Positions 1 to 11,227 of a DNA stretch of 26,810 bases are shown here, in pieces. The notes beneath the pieces were generated by a model, which saw only the letters and a list, made by a program, of their open reading frames with translations, was not told the DNA's origin and ran no database searches. Origin of the DNA: a virus (Duplodnaviria; Heunggongvirae; Uroviricota; Caudoviricetes); the IMG/VR virus record IMGVR_UViG_2740892035_000001, positions 1-26,810 of that record. One strand, 5' to 3'. Position 1 is the first letter of the stretch; each line of letters begins with the position of its first letter. The position numbers and the translations under genes were made by a program.

Positions 1-1053
1 TTACGGGGTAATGCCAACCGCTGCCGCCACTTTGTCGCCACTTGGCAGCGTTGCCAGAGGATTGAAACGGAGCGCCGTTTCTAGATGATCCGGTGCCAGA
101 TGTGCGTAACGCATAGTCATTTTTATATCGTGGTGTCCGAGAATTTTTTGTAAGGCCAGAATGTTTCCACCCGACATCATGAAGTGCGCCGCAAACGTAT
201 GGCGCAGAACGTGTGTGAGTTGACCGCGAGGGAGCACGATAGACGTTTTTTCCATCACGGATAAAAATTGAAAATAGCAGTCTGTGAAGAAATTGAACCC
301 ATCAAGCGCCATGATCTCTTCGTAAAGCTCTTTACTGATAGGGATGCTTCTGTTTTTCTTCCCCTTCGTTCTGACAAAGGTAATTCGGTATTTGGTCACC
401 TGTGAGCGGGTAAGATTTACGGCTTCACGCCAGCGTGCGCCTGTGCTTAAGCATATCTTAACTACCAGTGCCAGAATTGGGTCCTGACGTTTGCAATCAG
501 CCAGCAATTCAACAATCTGCTCATGGGTAAGCCATGCCATCTCTTTTTCTGCGATGGTGAATTTTCGCATGTTCTCCAGTGGGTTCGGATACGACCATTC
601 GCCCAGACGGGATAGTTCGCTAAAAACACTACTTAGATAGCTTTGCTCCAGGTTAATGGTGACCGGGCTTGCTCCTTTCTTCCATTTCTCGCTGAAGTAG
701 ATCTCGCCTGTCAGGCGTTTATCTCGATAGTGGGCAAACATTTTAGAGGTAAGATCGGTTGCAAGAGGATTGCCCAGAGCGTCAACCATCAACAGCAATT
801 TGTCATAGACATGCTGCCCAGCTGTCAGAGATTTACCATGTAGTTTGAACCATAGCTCAACCACGTCTTTCAGTGTTCGACGATCCACTGATTCACCCAG
901 CCAGGGCTTTGCTTCGGTTTCTTCCATCGTGTGGCGCTCAAAAGCCAGTGCTTCGCCTTTGGTAGCGAATTGTTTACGCACACGACGCCCACTTCGTCCG
1001 GCGGGGTAACATTCGCAAAGCCATTTCCCTGTGGTTAGTTTTCGTACTGCCAT
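1..1053 (-). CDS. int: Tyrosine recombinase, P2-type phage integrase (350 aa, complete; stop at 1-3)
   Basis: Translation shows P2 Int-like blocks (ICLSTGARWREA; HVLRHTFAAHFMMSGGNILALQKILGHHDIKMTMRYAHLAP with R-H-R-Y catalytic context); position at prophage edge next to repressor operon. Confidence 0.92.
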   Translation of the reverse strand: MAVRKLTTGKWLCECYPAGRSGRRVRKQFATKGEALAFERHTMEETEAKPWLGESVDRRTLKDVVELWFKLHGKSLTAGQHVYDKLLLMVDALGNPLATDLTSKMFAHYRDKRLTGEIYFSEKWKKGASPVTINLEQSYLSSVFSELSRLGEWSYPNPLENMRKFTIAEKEMAWLTHEQIVELLADCKRQDPILALVVKICLSTGARWREAVNLTRSQVTKYRITFVRTKGKKNRSIPISKELYEEIMALDGFNFFTDCYFQFLSVMEKTSIVLPRGQLTHVLRHTFAAHFMMSGGNILALQKILGHHDIKMTMRYAHLAPDHLETALRFNPLATLPSGDKVAAAVGITP

Positions 1054-1135: not shown

Positions 1136-2812
1136 CTAAGCAACATGTAGTTCATCGTTGGCGGAAGTGGCTGCTTTGCGCTCCTGCTCAATAGCTAGAG
1201 ACTCTCTATATTCTTTCGCCTCTGCAAACATTGTCCAGTGGGCGTTGATGTTCATGTCTTCAATAACTGATTTGATTTCTTTTAAATTTACGTTAAAAAA
1301 CTCTTTTCGTGAGTTAATTTTATTGACCTGCTTTTCGTTGAAAACTTTATGCAGATGGTTTTCTAATGATGGTGCATCATCACTATAAATCATCGCATGA
1401 ACATCGAACGAAAAAGGAACACTAGCATCTCCGAGTTCACGAACACGATCAAGTGGTTCAAGGCGGCGTGTCATTCCAATTTTATATACATCTTCGCCAA
1501 ATGAACCAATATTACTAATGATATAGACGTGGCCTGATCTGGTTTGTTGAGCCATAGAAATAGCTCGTTGATTTTTAGCTTCAGCTTCTTCATATTTTAA
1601 CTGTAGTTCAGCTATTTTTTGCTCTAAAGCTAAGCGTTGTTCTTCATTTGCAAGCATAAGTTCTTTCGTTGCTTTATTTATAGCTTGCTGAATAGCTTTT
1701 TCTTCTTTTTCAGCTTCTTTTATCGCTTTTTCATATTCTCTACGAGCTCTTTCCTCTTCACGAAGCTGTTCTTTAATCCTTCTTTGCTCTTCTTTTTCTT
1801 CGAGCATAATTTCATTAACTGCTACACCCCATTTTAGCTCGTTGAGTCTTGCCTGAAGATAGATGTCACTTATTTTTGCGGACCTAAAGGCAGAGCCATT
1901 GTAATTTACTAGTTGAAATGCATCTTTTATTTCTTGGGAAAGTTTTCCAAAATTGTTGTGTTTGACTTTTGATAAAATACTGTCAACTCTTCCATTGAAG
2001 GCATCCAAAACAAAGTTTATGGCAGTATTACGCCTGTTTTGCTCAACATAATCACACGAAGCAGCTTTATTAGTTTTTATTAATGATTTGGTTAACTCTC
2101 TGGCTTTTTGTAATTCCTTGCCTGCATCTGTAAATTCATAATTTTCTGCCAGCTCATCAAGTACACTACGGTTAGGGATGATCCATTCATCACCATAACC
2201 TTCAATTTTATTTTTCATTGATTTTGCAACTGCTTCATATTTTTCTGCAAACTCTTTAGCTTCATATGCTGAACCAGCAATCTCCTTTGCTCTTTCTTCT
2301 GCATCAGAAATAATTTTTACTGCATTGTCATTAGCATTTGAGATTAGCTCATTTGCTTTATTATTAGCATTATCAAGACGTTCTTTGGCTTTCAGGCGTG
2401 CATCGCGAGCGTCTTTGGTGATTGCTATAGCTTCGCTATTAGCGTTGCTTATTGTCATCTGAGCTTGATAATTTGCTTCGTTTACTGTTTTAGCCGCCTT
2501 AATTTGGGCTTCATCTATTTTTTGCTTGGCTATTGAGTCCGCATTTTTTATCTTATTCTCTGCATCCATTACTGCGCTGTGCAATTCTTCGTATTGCCAC
2601 AATGGTGCTGCTCGCCCTTCAAGCTCTGATAATTCTCGTACGGTCTGTGCTAGTTTTTCTTGATTTTCAATCAGTTGGTTAGAAAGGGCTATGTTGTTAG
2701 CTGTCAGGTTATCTATAGCCGCTTTGTGTTTTTTACTTTGTTTAAATAATATTACAGCTAGAACAGGGGCGAGAAATGCTAATAAGAGTATAACGATGGC
2801 AAATGAATTCAT
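1136..2812 (-). CDS. Accessory (moron) protein, 558 aa: N-terminal TM helix, ~330-aa Ala/Glu/Lys/Asn-rich predicted coiled coil, C-terminal T5orf172/MUG113-like (GIY-YIG-related) domain; architecture resembles DUF4041+T5orf172 proteins
   Basis: N-terminus MNSFAIVILLLAFLAPVLAVILF hydrophobic; C-terminus VYIISNIGSFGEDVYKIGMTRRLEPLDRVRELG...PFSFDVHAMIY resembles the T5orf172 motif; AT-rich compared with int and cI; starts 20 nt after the cI stop with AAGGA SD. Confidence 0.6.
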   Translation of the reverse strand: MNSFAIVILLLAFLAPVLAVILFKQSKKHKAAIDNLTANNIALSNQLIENQEKLAQTVRELSELEGRAAPLWQYEELHSAVMDAENKIKNADSIAKQKIDEAQIKAAKTVNEANYQAQMTISNANSEAIAITKDARDARLKAKERLDNANNKANELISNANDNAVKIISDAEERAKEIAGSAYEAKEFAEKYEAVAKSMKNKIEGYGDEWIIPNRSVLDELAENYEFTDAGKELQKARELTKSLIKTNKAASCDYVEQNRRNTAINFVLDAFNGRVDSILSKVKHNNFGKLSQEIKDAFQLVNYNGSAFRSAKISDIYLQARLNELKWGVAVNEIMLEEKEEQRRIKEQLREEERARREYEKAIKEAEKEEKAIQQAINKATKELMLANEEQRLALEQKIAELQLKYEEAEAKNQRAISMAQQTRSGHVYIISNIGSFGEDVYKIGMTRRLEPLDRVRELGDASVPFSFDVHAMIYSDDAPSLENHLHKVFNEKQVNKINSRKEFFNVNLKEIKSVIEDMNINAHWTMFAEAKEYRESLAIEQERKAATSANDELHVA

Positions 2813-2832: not shown

Positions 2833-3429
2833 TTAATTCGAGACTATTGTACTTCTTATACAAGCAACCACTTCAATATCAGAAAATGCACATTCAAAGC
2901 TATTCTCTGCTGTTGTAATTTTAATCATTCCTTTAGGAAGCCTTGTGATTTTTCGAATGGAATAGGTTCCGTCGATATTGATTAACCAGTTTCCATCAAG
3001 TACTTCAGAAAATTTTTGATCACAAATGTATGTGACGAGTCCATCCTGAACAACAATTGGTGATGAAAGGTTTGCAGGAAGAAATGATGAATCGAAGACA
3101 TATGAACCGTCTTCAATCATTTTGCCTGCGGCAAGGCGAAACTTAACAAGCTCTTCTGTAGCTGCTGTCAGCGAGCTTTGCTTAAGGCCTTGTCCGGTAG
3201 TTAACCATTTGAGGGAGGTTCCTGTTTCAAGAGCACATTGGATTATCCAGTCAGCAGGAAATGTATCCCGCAAATACCTGTTCGCTAGTGTGCTTTTTGA
3301 TACTTCCAAGTGATCAGCTAAAGCCTGTCGTGTCGTAAAGCCATAGGCTTCGACTAATCGCTCAATCGCAGCCTTACCACCTTTATTGGGATTTATTTTG
3401 ATCTCACTTGGGTACTTTGATGTTGACAT
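2833..3429 (-). CDS. cI: 186-type CI immunity repressor (198 aa)
   Basis: N-terminal HTH region (AYGFTTRQALADHLEVSKSTLANRYLRD...CALETGTSLKWLTTGQG) follows the 186 CI pattern as recalled; sits between int-side cargo and divergent early operon. Confidence 0.8.
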   Translation of the reverse strand: MSTSKYPSEIKINPNKGGKAAIERLVEAYGFTTRQALADHLEVSKSTLANRYLRDTFPADWIIQCALETGTSLKWLTTGQGLKQSSLTAATEELVKFRLAAGKMIEDGSYVFDSSFLPANLSSPIVVQDGLVTYICDQKFSEVLDGNWLINIDGTYSIRKITRLPKGMIKITTAENSFECAFSDIEVVACIRSTIVSN

Positions 3430-5579: not shown

Positions 5580-6433
5580 GCACCATCCTGAAATGGGCGG
5601 GAAATAAAACCGCCATTATGCCAGAACTGAAAAAATACCTTCCTGCTGGCCCGCGACTGGTTGAACCTTTCGCGGGTTCCTGTGCTGTGATGATGGAAAC
5701 GGATTATCCCAGCTATCTGGTTGCGGATATTAATCCTGATTTAATCAACCTCTATAAAAAGGTTGCCGCTGATTGTGAATCGTTTATATCTCGCGCCAGA
5801 GTTTTATTTGAGATCGCAAACAGGGAGGTGGCTTATTACAACATAAGGCAGGAGTTTAACTGCTCAACTGAAATTACTGATTTCATGAAAGCGGTATATT
5901 TCCTGTATCTCAATCGTCACGGTTACCGTGGTTTATGTCGCTATAACAAGAGCGGGCATTTCAACATTCCCTACGGTAATTATAAAAATCCGTATTTCCC
6001 TGAAAAAGAACTTCGCACATTTGCAGAAAAAGCCCAGCGAGCAACGTTTATCTGCGCCAGCTTTGATGAAACGCTGGCGATGTTGAAGGCGGGAGATGTG
6101 GTGTATTGCGATCCGCCATATGACGGTACGTTTTCCGGCTATCACACTGATGGTTTCACTGAAGATGACCAGTATCACCTGGCATCCGTTCTTGAACATC
6201 GGTCATCAGAAGGACATCCGGTCATTGTTTCTAACAGTGACACATCCCTGATCCGTTCGCTGTATCGCAATTTTACTCACCACTATATCAAGGTAAAACG
6301 CAGCATCGGTGTGGCAGCTGGCGAGGGTAAATCAGCAACAGAAATCATTGCTGTTTCCGGGCCGCGCTGCTGGATGGGATTTGATTATTCGCGTGGCGTG
6401 GATAGTTCTGCCGTGTACGGAGTACGTGCATGA
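5576..6433 (+). CDS. N6-adenine DNA methyltransferase, Dam-like (orphan, no adjacent endonuclease), 285 aa
   Basis: Motif [10 protein letters not shown] and catalytic DPPY ([12 protein letters not shown]) present; GGAGG SD before ATG 5576. Confidence 0.85.
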
Positions 6434-8844
6434 GTCATGCCGATATGAACAACTGCTGCGGCTTTAACGAGGCTGCCGCAGCATTCTCATGGAACAGCCC
6501 GAAAAAGGCCATTAACCCTTATCTGGACCCGGCGGAAGTTGCGCCGGTTTCTACGCTTTCAAACCTGATCACTCTGTACGCTGCCGATAACGAGCAGGAA
6601 CAGTTGCGCCGCGAGGCACTGAGTGATCAGGTCTGGGAGCGTTATTTCTTTAATGAATCACGTGATCCTGTCCAGCGCGAAATGGAGCAGGATAAGCTCA
6701 TTAGCCGGGCAAAGCTGGCGCATGAGCAGCAGCGTTTTAATTCAGACATGGTCATTCTGGCGGACGTCAACGCCCAGCCTTCCCATATCAGCAAGCCGCT
6801 GATGCAACGTATTGAATACTTCAGCAGCCTGGGCAGGCCAAAGGCTTATTCCCGCTATTTACGTGAGACGATTAAGCCATGTCTGGAACGACTGGAGCAT
6901 GTACGCGACAGTCAGCTATCTGCATCTTTTCGCTTTATGGCAAGCCATGAAGGGCTGGACGGCCTGCTGATCCTGCCTGAAATGAGTCAGGATCAGGTGA
7001 AACGCCTGTCCACCCTGGTAGCTGCGCATATGAGTATGTGCCTTGATGCAGCTTGTGGTGATTTGTATGCCACCGATGACGTTAAGCCAGAAGAAATCCG
7101 CAAGACGTGGGAAAAGGTGGCAGCGGAAACCCTGCGTCTGGATATCATCCCACCTGCGTTTGAGCAACTCCGTCGGAAAAGAAACCGCCGTAAACCCGTG
7201 CCCTATGAACTCATTCCGGGTTCGCTGGCGCGTATGTTGTGCGCCGACTGGTGGTATCGGAAATTATGGAAGATGCGTTGCGAATGGCGGGAAGAGCAGT
7301 TGCGCGCTGTTTGCCTGGTCAGCAAAAAAGCATCTCCTTATGTCAGCTATGAAGCCGTGATGCATAAACGTGAGCAGCGCCGTAAGTCGCTGGAGTTTTT
7401 CCGTTCTCATGAACTGGTGAACGAAGACGGCGACACGCTGGACATGGAGGATGTGGTAAACGCCAGCAGCAGCAACCCTGCGCATCGCCGCAATGAGATG
7501 ATGGCCTGTGTTAAAGGTCTGGAGCTTATCGCGGAAATGCGCGGTGACTGCGCCGTTTTCTACACTATCACCTGTCCGTCGCGTTTCCATTCCACGCTAA
7601 ATAACGGCAGACCAAACCCGACCTGGACAAACGCGACGGTAAGACAAAGCAGCGATTATCTGGTCGGCATGTTTGCTGCATTTCGTAAGGCGATGCACAA
7701 AGCCGGGTTGCGCTGGTATGGCGTGCGGGTGGCTGAGCCGCATCATGATGGCACAGTTCACTGGCACCTGTTGTGTTTCATGCGCAAAAAAGACCGCCGT
7801 GCCATCACTGCATTACTGCGTAAGTTTGCCATCCGTGAAGACCGCGAGGAGCTGGGCAATAACACTGGGCCGCGCTTTAAGTCTGAGTTGATTAACCCGC
7901 GCAAAGGAACGCCGACAAGCTACATCGCGAAATATATCAGTAAGAACATTGACGGTCGTGGTCTGGCTGGCGAGATCAGCAAGGAAACGGGTAAATCTCT
8001 GCGTGATAACGCTGAATACGTGAATGCCTGGGCGTCTCTGCATCGTGTTCAGCAATTCCGCTTCTTTGGTATTCCGGGGCGTCAGGCTTACCGTGAACTT
8101 CGCTTGCTGGCTGGTCAGGCGGCAAGGCAACAGGGTGACAAAAAAGCAGGTGCGCCGGTACTGGATAACCCGCGTCTTGATGCCATTCTGGCTGCTGCTG
8201 ATGCTGGTTGTTTTGCCACCTACATCATGAAGCAGGGCGGCGTACTGGTTCCCCGTAAATATCACCTCATCAGAACCGCTTATGAAATCAACGAAGAGCC
8301 GACCGCCTATGGCGATCACGGCATTCGTATTTATGGCATCTGGTCACCCATTGCAGAGGGCAAGATCTGCACTCATGCAGTGAAGTGGAAAATGGTTCGT
8401 AAAGCCGTTGACGTTCAGGAGGCGGCAGCCGACCAGGGCGCTTGCGCCCCTTGGACTCGTGGCAATAACTGTCCCCTTGCTGAAAATTTGAACCAACAAG
8501 GGAAAGACAAATCAGCTGATGGGGATACCAGGACGGACATTACCCGCATGGATGACAAGGAGTTGCACGATTACCTGCACAGTATGAGCAAAAAAGAGCG
8601 CCGGGAACTGGCTGCAAGGTTACGCCTGGTGAAACCGAAACGGCGTAAAGACTACAAACAGCGAATTACAGACCATCAGCGACAGCAGCTCGTCTATGAA
8701 CTGAAGTCCAGAGGATTTGATGGCAGCGAGAAAGAGGTCGATTTACTCCTTCGCGGCGGCAGTATTCCGTCAGGAGCAGGCCTGCGTATCTTCTATCGGA
8801 ACCAGCGTTTGCAGGAAGATGATAAGTGGCGAAACCTGTATTAA
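6430..8844 (+). CDS. A: Replication initiation endonuclease, P2 gpA family (rolling-circle initiator), 804 aa
   Basis: Size and position as in P2 A; contains the HWHLL-type histidine motif (TVHWHLLCF) and downstream active-site Tyr context (YIAKYISKN); start overlaps Dam stop. Confidence 0.85.
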
Positions 8845-8938
8845 TTACGCGGGTTAACAATTCGTGCTCTTAATAATACCAGGCATATCAGGCTGATGAA
8901 CGTAAAAAAACGTTTTACATCAGTAAGATTATTATATA

Positions 8939-8954
8939 CTGTAAATATAAACAG
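8939..8954 (+). promoter_or_regulatory. LexA (SOS) box CTGTAAATATAAACAG, next to a TTTACA -35-like hexamer at 8914-8919
   Basis: Exact CTGT-N8-ACAG match read from sequence, ~45 nt upstream of the tum-like ORF. Confidence 0.7.
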
Positions 8955-8997
8955 TGGTTATGAATACAGTATTGCTTGTGGTGTCATAGGAGGAAAG

Positions 8998-9186
8998 ATG
9001 CAGGACTATTTTTTGGAGTCTTTGAAGCTCCAGCGCATTGATTTTTTTCTTAAGCTTGTAGCGGCTAGTGAGTGTAGTGATGAAGAGAAGGGGCTGGCTT
9101 TGCAGTGGGTTTCTGAACTGACAGATGAACTCATGGCAAAAATCAGAACCCACGAATACAACCGCTCAATGGATGTCATCAGCTGA
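8998..9186 (+). CDS. Tum-like antirepressor N-terminal part (62 aa as read); probably the frameshifted 5' portion of a longer tum gene
   Basis: GGAGGAAAG SD before ATG 8998; downstream of LexA box; frame overlaps the start of the DinI-like ORF (see findings). Confidence 0.4.
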   Translation: MQDYFLESLKLQRIDFFLKLVAASECSDEEKGLALQWVSELTDELMAKIRTHEYNRSMDVIS

Positions 9187-9196
9187 GGTGACTTTT

Positions 9197-9430
9197 ATGC
9201 GCATTGAAATAATGATCGATAAAGAGCAGAAGATTAGCCAGTCTACCCTGGATGCCCTTGAATCCGAGCTTTACCGCAATCTGCGCCCCCTGTATCCCAA
9301 AACGGTAATTCGTATCCGCAAAGGTAGCTCTAACGGTGTGGAACTGACCGGACTGCAACTGGACGAAGAAAGAAAACAAGTGCTGAAAATTATGCAGAAG
9401 GTGTGGGAAGACGACTGCTGGCTGCATTGA
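9197..9430 (+). CDS. DinI-family protein (Tum72/DinI-like), 77 aa
   Basis: MRIEIMIDKEQ...ESELYRNLRPLYP...KVWEDDCWLH follows DinI family hallmarks (MRIE start, acidic Trp-containing C-terminus); own GAGGTGA SD. Confidence 0.65.
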   Translation: MRIEIMIDKEQKISQSTLDALESELYRNLRPLYPKTVIRIRKGSSNGVELTGLQLDEERKQVLKIMQKVWEDDCWLH

Positions 9431-9566: not shown

Positions 9567-10460
9567 ATGGCGGATAAGACTCAATCAGTAAGTATTGTGT
9601 ATCAAGGCAAAGCTCTCGACGATCATAAGATGGATATTCTTTCGTTTGCGAAAAGTTTGCAGGGGCTAGGTGAGGCTATCTACTCTGCAAATGAGATTGT
9701 AAACGGAGGGCGAGACATTGAAGTTAACGTTGACGCTGAATTGATAGCCGGTTCCTTTGGGTTTGATATTGAGGTTGTACAACATCTAGCTAATGCTAAA
9801 GATGTTGTACAAATTTTAGGTTTGTCAGCCATTCCTTTAGCCGTTGGCGGTGCTACAGTTTTAGAGGTTCTCAAGAAGCTTAACGGGCGTAAGATCGACA
9901 TAGTCGAGAAAGCTAACGGTAGTGACAAAGTTAAGCTGAAAGTCGATGGTGAAGAGATTGTTTGCTCTGAAGATGTCGAAAAAATCGTTAATGCCCCAGA
10001 GATTCGTAAGGCTGTTGACGCGTTTGTCAGACAGCCTCTGTTACAAGATGGTATCGACAATTTTGTGGTAAAAAAATCGCGCACCTCTAAGAAAGAAATC
10101 CTCAAAATTCATAAAGATGAGGCAGAAGAGTTTAAGTCGCCAAAAGTTCTCTTTGAAACCAAAGAAGAAGTTGACGAATTTGAAACAACCGTGACATTCG
10201 TTTCGGCGCATACTGACAAAAAAAGTGGCTGGCGTGTTGAGTTTGGCGGTGAAAAGCGCAATGTCAGAATGGAAGATAATGAGTTCATCAAGCTTGTTAC
10301 TGGACCAGACGCCCCCAAAATTTTTGGCGAATTGTTTGCTGTGAAGATGAAGAAAATTGTGAAAGATTCCGGTGGCCAGGTAGACGAAAAGTTATCGATC
10401 ATCAAAGTGGGTCGACACTTTGCCGCCAAAGATAGAAAAATAAAACCTGATGCGGATTAA
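9567..10460 (+). CDS. Accessory cargo protein X, ~297 aa, soluble, no recognisable motif (track start 9546 is a TTG)
   Basis: Long open frame in an AT-rich insert; first gene of a tightly coupled three-gene operon. Confidence 0.6.
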   Translation: MADKTQSVSIVYQGKALDDHKMDILSFAKSLQGLGEAIYSANEIVNGGRDIEVNVDAELIAGSFGFDIEVVQHLANAKDVVQILGLSAIPLAVGGATVLEVLKKLNGRKIDIVEKANGSDKVKLKVDGEEIVCSEDVEKIVNAPEIRKAVDAFVRQPLLQDGIDNFVVKKSRTSKKEILKIHKDEAEEFKSPKVLFETKEEVDEFETTVTFVSAHTDKKSGWRVEFGGEKRNVRMEDNEFIKLVTGPDAPKIFGELFAVKMKKIVKDSGGQVDEKLSIIKVGRHFAAKDRKIKPDAD

Positions 10461-10462
10461 AA

Positions 10463-10726
10463 ATGTCTATAGATATTAGTGTGTTAGGATGGTTGGGGCT
10501 GCTTGTTGCAGCTCCAGCTATATTTATAGGTGCTAGAGTGGCTATACGTAGCCTGCTCGATCGAGTTATTGTCGAAACAAAAGTTTCTATCACTTATACT
10601 GATGCAAACAAAAATGTCTATAAAACAAATATTTATATAAACAATGATGATGAGTTAATAAAGCTCATCGATGATATAGCAGAGAAAAATAAGCGTGAGA
10701 GGAAGGAGTCAGCCTCTCATGCCTGA
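10463..10726 (+). CDS. Accessory small membrane protein Y, 87 aa, one N-terminal TM helix plus charged C-terminal tail
   Basis: ISVLGWLGLLVAAPAIFIGARVAI hydrophobic segment; starts 2 nt after X stop. Confidence 0.55.
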   Translation: MSIDISVLGWLGLLVAAPAIFIGARVAIRSLLDRVIVETKVSITYTDANKNVYKTNIYINNDDELIKLIDDIAEKNKRERKESASHA

Positions 10727-11135
10727 ACAAAAGAAAACAAGCGGTAAAGCAGTCGGTGTTACAGGTGGCGGCGGTGTAGGCCTTTTCCTAATAAAGCTGG
10801 CTAGCTTCATTACAGATCCAACATGGAAAGACCTTTACATTGCTTCAATACCGATGGTGTCAATTCTTTTAAGCGAAGTTTTTACTTTTGCATGGACGAT
10901 TTATGCTGTTGATCCGCAAGAAATCAAACTGAAAAGGCGGTTGAAGGCTCTGAAGAAGCAAGCCGAAGCAGTTTTAAATGCACCATCGTCCCCTGTTTCT
11001 CCAGAAATGCGAGAGAAAGCGCAGGCTCGTTACGACGTGATCTGTGGAATTGAAATGGGAATTTACCCCCTCTCAATTGTAAATACGCTAGATGGAAAAG
11101 TATCCCCCACAGCGCAAACGCCGGACGTTAAATAG
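10719..11135 (+). CDS. Accessory membrane protein Z, 138 aa, two TM helices then soluble C-terminus
   Basis: ATG 10719 with AGGAAGGAG SD; overlaps Y by 8 nt; hydrophobic segments GVGLFLIKLASFI and IASIPMVSILLSEVFTFAWTIYAV. Confidence 0.55.
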   Translation: MPEQKKTSGKAVGVTGGGGVGLFLIKLASFITDPTWKDLYIASIPMVSILLSEVFTFAWTIYAVDPQEIKLKRRLKALKKQAEAVLNAPSSPVSPEMREKAQARYDVICGIEMGIYPLSIVNTLDGKVSPTAQTPDVK

Positions 11136-11200: not shown

Positions 11201-11227
11201 AAGCCCGCCAGAACTGGCGGGCTTTTG
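11201..11227 (+). terminator. Rho-independent terminator (GCCCGCC stem, 6-nt loop, TTTT tail) ending the X-Y-Z operon
   Basis: AAAGCCCGCCAGAACTGGCGGGCTTTT read directly. Confidence 0.7.

Follow-up and report, generated by a model that had tools for sequence, protein, structure and literature searches.

The split tum locus of a P2-like prophage read as the natural two-gene form of an SOS induction operon

Two short open reading frames (ORFs) that follow a LexA box in different frames, and that the removal of a single nucleotide would fuse, raise the question of whether a phage gene has been broken or whether the locus simply holds two genes. The locus lies in a window of 26,810 nucleotides, i.e., the whole stretch of viral DNA analysed herein. 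An initial sequence-only reading described it as tum-like, and this identification is upheld: it is the LexA-controlled tum locus of a 186/Fels-2-type P2-like prophage. The same reading took the gene to be split by a frameshift, as a pseudogene, a programmed frameshift or a homopolymer error, and this part is refuted by the comparative data. Very probably, region 8914-9430 represents the ordinary two-gene version of the operon through which a Fels-2/PSP3-type P2-like prophage is induced by the SOS response. Support within this analysis comes from sequence anatomy, homology, the conserved split, the variable frame and codon-level constraint, and the literature contributes the inactivation of CI by 186 Tum and the antirepressor activity carried by PSP3 tumA. 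The two-gene tumA/tumB arrangement is already known.

Gene content and profile searches of the window identify a P2-like prophage, with the following genes outside the tum locus:

1-1053, minus strand: integrase
1136-2812, minus strand: 558-aa PD-Lambda-1 match (PADLOC E=2e-120; Pfam T5orf172/MUG113 and DUF4041)
2833-3429, minus strand: 186-type CI repressor, candidate target of TumA (Pfam Phage_CI_repr E=8e-32, Phage_CI_C E=3.5e-27)
6430-8844, plus strand: P2 gpA-type replication endonuclease, conserved on the left side of the tum operon
9567-10460, plus strand: PDC-S42-like gene, 297 aa (PADLOC candidate defence family, E=8e-44; phrog_3243)
10463-10726 and 10719-11135: two small ORFs after the PDC-S42-like gene, with no family match

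A CII-like activator and a DNA methylase are also encoded in the window, and portal, terminase and tail genes come after the gpA-type gene. The tum locus (8914-9430) lies directly 3' of the gpA-like gene (6430-8844), the position of the tum module in 186, PSP3 and Fels-2, and the order gpA then tum is common to 186, Fels-2, PSP3, SopEPhi and others. In coliphage 186, the slot after gene A is occupied by the LexA-repressed p95-tum-orf97 SOS operon (annotated 186 record).

Both P2 cargo slots of the window are filled by candidate defence genes. The 558-aa PD-Lambda-1-like gene sits between the integrase gene and cI as cargo at the other P2-type hotspot, and the PDC-S42-like gene fills the slot of orf97 in 186 and Fels-2. 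A terminator scan called none between tumB and the PDC-S42-like gene, so this cargo may share the SOS transcript, by analogy with orf97 in 186. A GC-rich hairpin followed by T4 was seen by eye at 11203-11226, 3' of the last small ORF; it was missed by the scan because the T residues number only four.

The operon itself comprises the following features:

8914-8919, plus strand: -35-like hexamer TTTACA of the putative SOS promoter, counterpart of 186 p95
8937-8942, plus strand: -10-like hexamer TACTGT, overlapping LexA box 1
8939-8954, plus strand: predicted LexA box 1, CTGTAAATATAAACAG (pattern match)
8954-8969, plus strand: LexA-like box 2, GTGGTTATGAATACAG, sharing one base with box 1 to give a double operator
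8988-8993, plus strand: Shine-Dalgarno sequence AGGAGG of tumA
8998-9186, plus strand: tumA-like gene, 62 aa (ORF62), putative CI antirepressor (PHROG profile, Fels-2 identity, RefSeq)
9138-9142, plus strand: A5 run within tumA, codons Ala47-Lys48-Ile49, not read as a frameshift site
9185-9190, plus strand: Shine-Dalgarno sequence GAGGTG of tumB, overlapping the tumA stop codon (9184-9186)
9197-9430, plus strand: tumB, 77-aa DinI-family protein (Pfam, PHROG, PDB and RefSeq matches)

The SOS promoter was placed by analogy with the annotated p95 of 186, in which the -10 is the identical TACTGT hexamer inside the LexA site; the layout of the window matches. TTTACA and TACTGT are separated by 17 nt, and TTTACA is kept at the equivalent position in most homologous loci. 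A consensus promoter scan did not call this promoter at 8914-8942, because TACTGT agrees with TATAAT at only three of six positions. The LexA box, reported initially upstream of both ORFs, is found there at 8939-8954 and is the sole CTGT-N8-ACAG in the window. Taken alone, it is statistically not remarkable and proves little, given a chance expectation of 0.36 per window and at least one match in 26 of 100 shuffles. Its weight derives from its position over the -10 and from its conservation rather than from the motif. The predicted operator (8939-8954) overlaps the -10 (8937-8942), and among 36 species-level loci, collected by a related-locus search seeded with a six-sequence alignment, 32 have a CTG-N10-CAG box 5' of the homologous ORF; one of the four loci lacking the box has too little upstream sequence.

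Of 111 IMG/VR loci, 104 carry the double pattern CTG-N10-CA(G/C)TG-N10-CAG, as do the window and most Fels-2-type loci, whereas 186, PSP3 and ESSI-2-type loci show a single LexA box. Close alignments of about 37 nt also link the double operator to a ColE1-like E. coli plasmid and to the region upstream of pst, the pesticin gene of Y. pestis pPCP1. In colicin genes, two overlapping SOS boxes bring about tight repression (Kamensek 2010, PMC2994835).

Downstream of the operator, both ORFs proposed initially were recovered. The 62-aa ORF (8998-9186) has its own Shine-Dalgarno sequence, and the pattern AGGAGG(G/A)AA(A/G)ATG is conserved among tumA homologues. RefSeq annotates it as an intact CDS (WP_001154434.1), and its product is identical to Fels-2 STM2728 at 61 of 62 residues (98%). 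A longer, 96-aa ORF starting from ATG 8896 (8896-9186) was considered and rejected, as it would run across the promoter and the LexA box; the extension is very unlikely to be coding, because a one-base difference in the A-run at 8904-8910 places it out of frame in Fels-2. The long form is annotated in some phage records (Klebsiella ST437-OXA245phi4.1; L005, 596-889).

The relationship of this protein to 186 Tum emerges from profile comparisons. Both ORF62 (E=3.6e-38) and residues 7-44 of 186 Tum (E=2.4e-5) are matched by phrog_698, a family of stand-alone proteins of 62-63 aa; in addition, phrog_8554 and phrog_1993, two families of proteins of about 65 aa, match both. The antirepressor module is thus homologous to the N-terminal half of 186 Tum at profile level only. 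Pairwise BLASTP of ORF62 against 186 Tum gave no alignment, so the homology rests on the PHROG profiles, and the two proteins show an alignment identity of only 18%. No family was found for ORF62 in a Pfam search, and a profile search of PDB sequences likewise returned nothing. Single-sequence AF2 predicts TumA to be a two-helix hairpin (helices 2-23 and 28-61, pLDDT 91.6), in which the second helix would span residues 48-61, that is, the residues after the A-run. The conserved C-terminal tail (...KIRxHEYxRSMDVxS) is placed in this helix by the model, and the protein carries 12 acidic against 7 basic residues. Foldseek of the model against the PDB yielded generic helical hairpins only, none at E<=0.001, and this result holds no functional information because the matches are generic.

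The second ORF is a complete DinI homologue, located after the antirepressor module as in the tum module of related phages. TumB matches Pfam DinI (PF06183) at E=4.3e-21 and 75.4 bits (gathering cut-off 24.2), its residues 14-76 covering profile positions 1-63 of 63, and phrog_189 at E=4.8e-28. Furthermore, it aligns end to end with E. coli DinI (PDB 1GHH; residues 1-75 vs 1-77, E=6e-6) and is recorded in RefSeq as WP_001217573.1, DinI-like family protein. The Pfam and 1GHH matches thereby substantiate the 77-aa DinI-like ORF at 9197-9430 in a frame other than that of tumA. The claim that it keeps its own start also holds, with Shine-Dalgarno GAGGTG followed by ATG; a purine-rich G-run is found in every homologous tumA-tumB spacer. 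The tumB frame, +1 relative to ORF62, is open from 9122 and has its first ATG at 9125, so that it overlaps ORF62 up to 9186, in agreement with the overlap of 9125-9186 noted initially.

A small hairpin (9175-9192, GTCATC-AGCTGA-GGTGAC) has a loop that contains the tumA stop codon and a 3' arm that contains the tumB Shine-Dalgarno sequence. Hairpins over the tumB Shine-Dalgarno sequence occur, with differing sequences and an ambiguous alignment register, in the window, in Fels-2 and in some Klebsiella/Raoultella types; the equivalent in Klebsiella phi4.1 and Raoultella types is ATTTCC/GGGAAT. Comparison of the homologous junctions, in the same ambiguous register, gave no hairpin over the tumB Shine-Dalgarno sequence in the SopEPhi type. 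The hairpin at 9175-9192 may be a translational-coupling device.

Across homologous loci, the tumB frame relative to tumA is +1, +2 or 0, the spacers measure 3 or 9-12 nt, and the tumA stop is TGA, TAA or TAG:

Window and Fels-2: frame +1, spacer 10 nt
SopEPhi and Klebsiella phi4.1: frame +2, spacer 11 nt
Yersinia MLG42: frame 0, spacer 12 nt
Two Enterobacter loci: frame 0, spacer 9 nt
PSP3: frame 0, spacer 3 nt

Such variation in the relative frame is what two independently translated genes would show, and no single indel explains the split. In addition, a LexA-boxed tumA-like ORF occurs without a nearby DinI gene in 16 of 36 species-level enterobacterial loci as well as in ESSI-2-type phages, so that tumA represents an autonomous module (loci L135, L139, L148, L152-L161, L163-L165; L007, L008). 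In two further loci (L144 and L162), tumB is truncated or frameshifted and tumA is intact. From these sequences, only the DinI module of the two gives the impression of being dispensable.

The proposal that a single gene was broken can be weighed against these data. Its arithmetic is correct: deleting one A would join the two ORFs into a protein of 143 aa, near the 146 aa of 186 Tum, a length borne out by the 186 record, and in the window 25 codons of open +1 frame precede the tumB ATG. The A5 run exists as well, one base further on (9138-9142) than the 9137-9141 first given. The shorter 186 product was named Tum72 in the initial reading; the shortest nested tum product of the record has 76 aa, not 72, and a GTG start. 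As for the relatives, 186 Tum does consist of fused modules, and Fels-2 is split into two ORFs just as the window is, with an identical 10-nt spacer and A5 run; the sole indel between the two lies in the non-coding A-run upstream of the promoter (8904-8910), where Fels-2 has one base fewer.

That an ancestral 143-aa tum gained one A, leaving a broken antirepressor and a prophage that is not SOS-inducible, is extremely improbable in view of the lineage as a whole. At least 120 IMG/VR contigs contain the 20-mer across the A5 run, and its A4 version occurs in none of 2.9 million viral contigs; a fused allele is thus missing from the lineage, and close relatives do not hold an intact single-ORF allele beside which the split one would be a minority. 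Both ORFs are intact in 110 of the 111 IMG/VR contigs holding the complete region, and the functional homologous phages Fels-2, SopEPhi and PSP3 share the two-ORF arrangement, in relative frames that differ between homologues. Moreover, the tumA frame downstream of the A-run is under purifying selection up to its stop codon. Over codons 49-62 of 34 distinct homologues, 54% of the codon differences are synonymous in the tumA frame, compared with 10% and 7.5% in the other frames, so coding constraint has not been lost beyond the supposed lesion. The would-be linker QKSEPTNTTAQWMSSAEVTF is not conserved, and the +1 frame that encodes it contains a stop in 28 of the 34 homologues. A sequencing or assembly error is the least probable explanation of all and can practically be set aside, even though homopolymers are error-prone on some platforms and the record of phage 500465-1 has several indels in this region. 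Independent projects have yielded at least 120 viral contigs with the A5 run, which recurs in Fels-2 (LT2 genome), in many Klebsiella phage records and in about 1,060 complete E. coli genomes. E. coli records with the region number 1,129, of which about 1,060 cover its full length, and RefSeq annotates it as two intact CDS without a pseudogene flag. A5 is too short a run for efficient transcriptional slippage, which counts against the notion that the fused protein arises as a minor Tum-like product, whether by such slippage or by a programmed +1 ribosomal frameshift on GCA-AAA-ATC. The Lys-tRNA could indeed re-pair from AAA 9139-9141 to AAA 9140-9142, and the +1 frame runs open into tumB in the window and in Fels-2, which would yield a product with the junction peptide ...MAKSEPTNTTAQW... 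Nevertheless, the site is accompanied by no stimulator in the form of a stop codon, a rare codon or an upstream Shine-Dalgarno sequence, the A-run is absent from SopEPhi tumA, and spacers of 9, 11 and 12 nt, including those of five IMG/VR loci with A5, would not fuse on a +1 shift. The +1 frame, closed in 28 of 34 homologues, is devoid of coding constraint, and neither the slippery site nor the open shifted frame is conserved across homologues. Programmed frameshifting is therefore very unlikely. Altogether, the comparisons indicate that tum of this prophage is not a gene broken by a frameshift; it is the natural two-gene form.

Copies that are truly frameshifted do exist in databases and look unlike the window. 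Escherichia phage 500465-1 (L003, CP025900.1; 701-1231, unannotated) has a tumA with compensating indels and a tumB that is frameshifted twice, most likely through errors of assembly.

Within the two-gene reading, the operon would function as follows. In an undamaged cell, LexA is expected, by homology, to occupy the double operator (8939-8969) over the promoter -10 and to keep the operon off. Upon DNA damage, LexA would be cleaved and the operon transcribed, and translation would start separately at two ATGs, each behind its own Shine-Dalgarno sequence, to give two proteins. TumA, the predicted acidic two-helix hairpin, would then bind the 186-type CI (2833-3429) and block its operator binding, leading to lytic development, as extrapolated from its homologues. 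TumB presumably acts on RecA filaments, as DinI homology suggests, to tune the SOS signal. The model for TumA is 186, in which SOS de-represses p95 and Tum binds, sequesters and inactivates CI (Shearwin 1998, as related in papers citing it). In keeping with this model, a 186-type CI is encoded in the same prophage; it is 32% identical to 186 CI and 42% identical to Fels-2 CI.

Whether the 62-aa protein acts as an antirepressor in this clade at all, or has another SOS-linked role with induction proceeding via another factor, is a question on which opposing observations bear. Its similarity to the 186 Tum N-terminus is weak, identical TumA proteins are linked to very different CI proteins, and the experimental evidence for a stand-alone TumA is second-hand, since its antirepressor activity is documented only by a GenBank note and by a personal communication that two papers pass on. 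The main doubt stems from this second-hand evidence together with the divergence of the window CI, only 42% identical to that of Fels-2 when TumA is 98% identical. Against another role stand the position, promoter and operator, which are as in 186 tum, the profile-level homology, and the PSP3 annotation that links tumA to UV induction. Furthermore, tumA persists under a LexA box without a DinI gene, as expected of an essential induction gene, and the invariant residues of the linked CIs cluster in the DNA-binding domain. On balance, a role other than antirepression is very unlikely, and a CI antirepressor remains the preferred assignment for TumA.

Among IMG/VR loci (L010-L129), TumA of 98-100% identity, a value biased high because the loci were selected by a tumA 20-mer, is accompanied by 186-type CI repressors of at least a dozen kinds. 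Compared with the window CI, the linked repressors are 61-100% identical in the N-terminal domain and 30-100% in the C-terminal domain, and in Klebsiella phages with identical TumA, CI identity is 41-51%. Over 20 distinct linked CIs, 29 of the 32 invariant residues fall at positions 17-79, in the HTH domain. One TumA with many CIs suggests, from sequence comparison, either that the antirepressor acts broadly by targeting the DNA-binding domain or that many of the pairs are mismatched products of recombination. A bolder proposal, which is speculative and rather doubtful at present, is that the tum cassette of the Fels-2 clade constitutes a 'universal' induction module. In this view, TumA would recognise the DNA-binding domain of CI, perhaps by mimicking DNA with its acidic helices, and might cross-induce P2-like prophages that are heteroimmune, with its expression gated by a double operator of the colicin/pesticin type. 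A trace of +1 slippage at A5 giving fused Tum could be added to this proposal and is far less likely.

The locus leaves current understanding unchanged, and its value lies in annotation. A tum locus of two ORFs in a P2-like prophage is neither to be marked as a pseudogene nor taken as a sign that the prophage is non-inducible, and TumA-like antirepressor is a fitting name for the 62-aa 'hypothetical protein'. The same two modules occur fused (186), split in any frame (Fels-2, SopEPhi, PSP3) or without the DinI part, a pattern that supports the published view of 186 Tum as a fusion of two modules.

Among known systems, PSP3 resembles the window in having two separate genes right after gene A, behind a LexA box: a relative of the 186 Tum N-terminus of about 60 aa and then a 77-aa DinI homologue. 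Its record (NC_005340) describes PSP3p39 tumA as 'similar to 5' end 186 tum; UV induction of prophage' and PSP3p40 tumB as 'similar to dinI and 3' end of 186 tum'. The TumB proteins of PSP3 and the window are clearly alike, whereas the TumA proteins are only about 14% identical, and the PSP3 genes lie in one frame, separated by a stop codon and 3 nt. According to the account of Lemire et al. (2011, PMC3121763), which cites Bunny et al. (2002), tum of Fels-2 and PSP3 is split in two by a stop codon; in PSP3, the antirepressor is the upstream gene and the DinI homologue the downstream gene (PMC3121763). Fels-2 is the closer relative, its module (STM2728.Fels2 and STM2726.1.Fels2) sharing 97.6% DNA identity and the same double LexA operator with the window; it differs in carrying an orf97-like gene downstream, where the window carries the PDC-S42-like gene.

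Phage 186 shares with the window the slot, the promoter/LexA layout, the order of modules and a 186-type CI. In contrast to the window, it joins both modules in a single ORF that has nested internal starts (Tum, 146 aa), and its N-terminal module is distantly related, at profile level. The 186 gene keeps AAGGAGG and a GTG exactly before the DinI module, annotated as the start of a nested product. Given this retained internal start, and with profiles linking the N-termini, the most plausible reading of 186 Tum is that of a two-module system in fused form, a suggestion also made by Lemire et al. (2011, PMC3121763). TumB, for its part, aligns with E. coli DinI (1GHH) over its full length and differs from it in being phage-borne and paired with an antirepressor; its effect on RecA would be that of its homologue. 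A parallel in lambdoid phages is provided by the dinI-gfoA/gftA operons of Gifsy-1, -2 and -3, in which LexA controls a DinI homologue together with a small antirepressor that inactivates an uncleavable repressor (PMC3121763). There, dinI comes first, the reverse of the order in the window, and the antirepressor and repressor belong to unrelated families.
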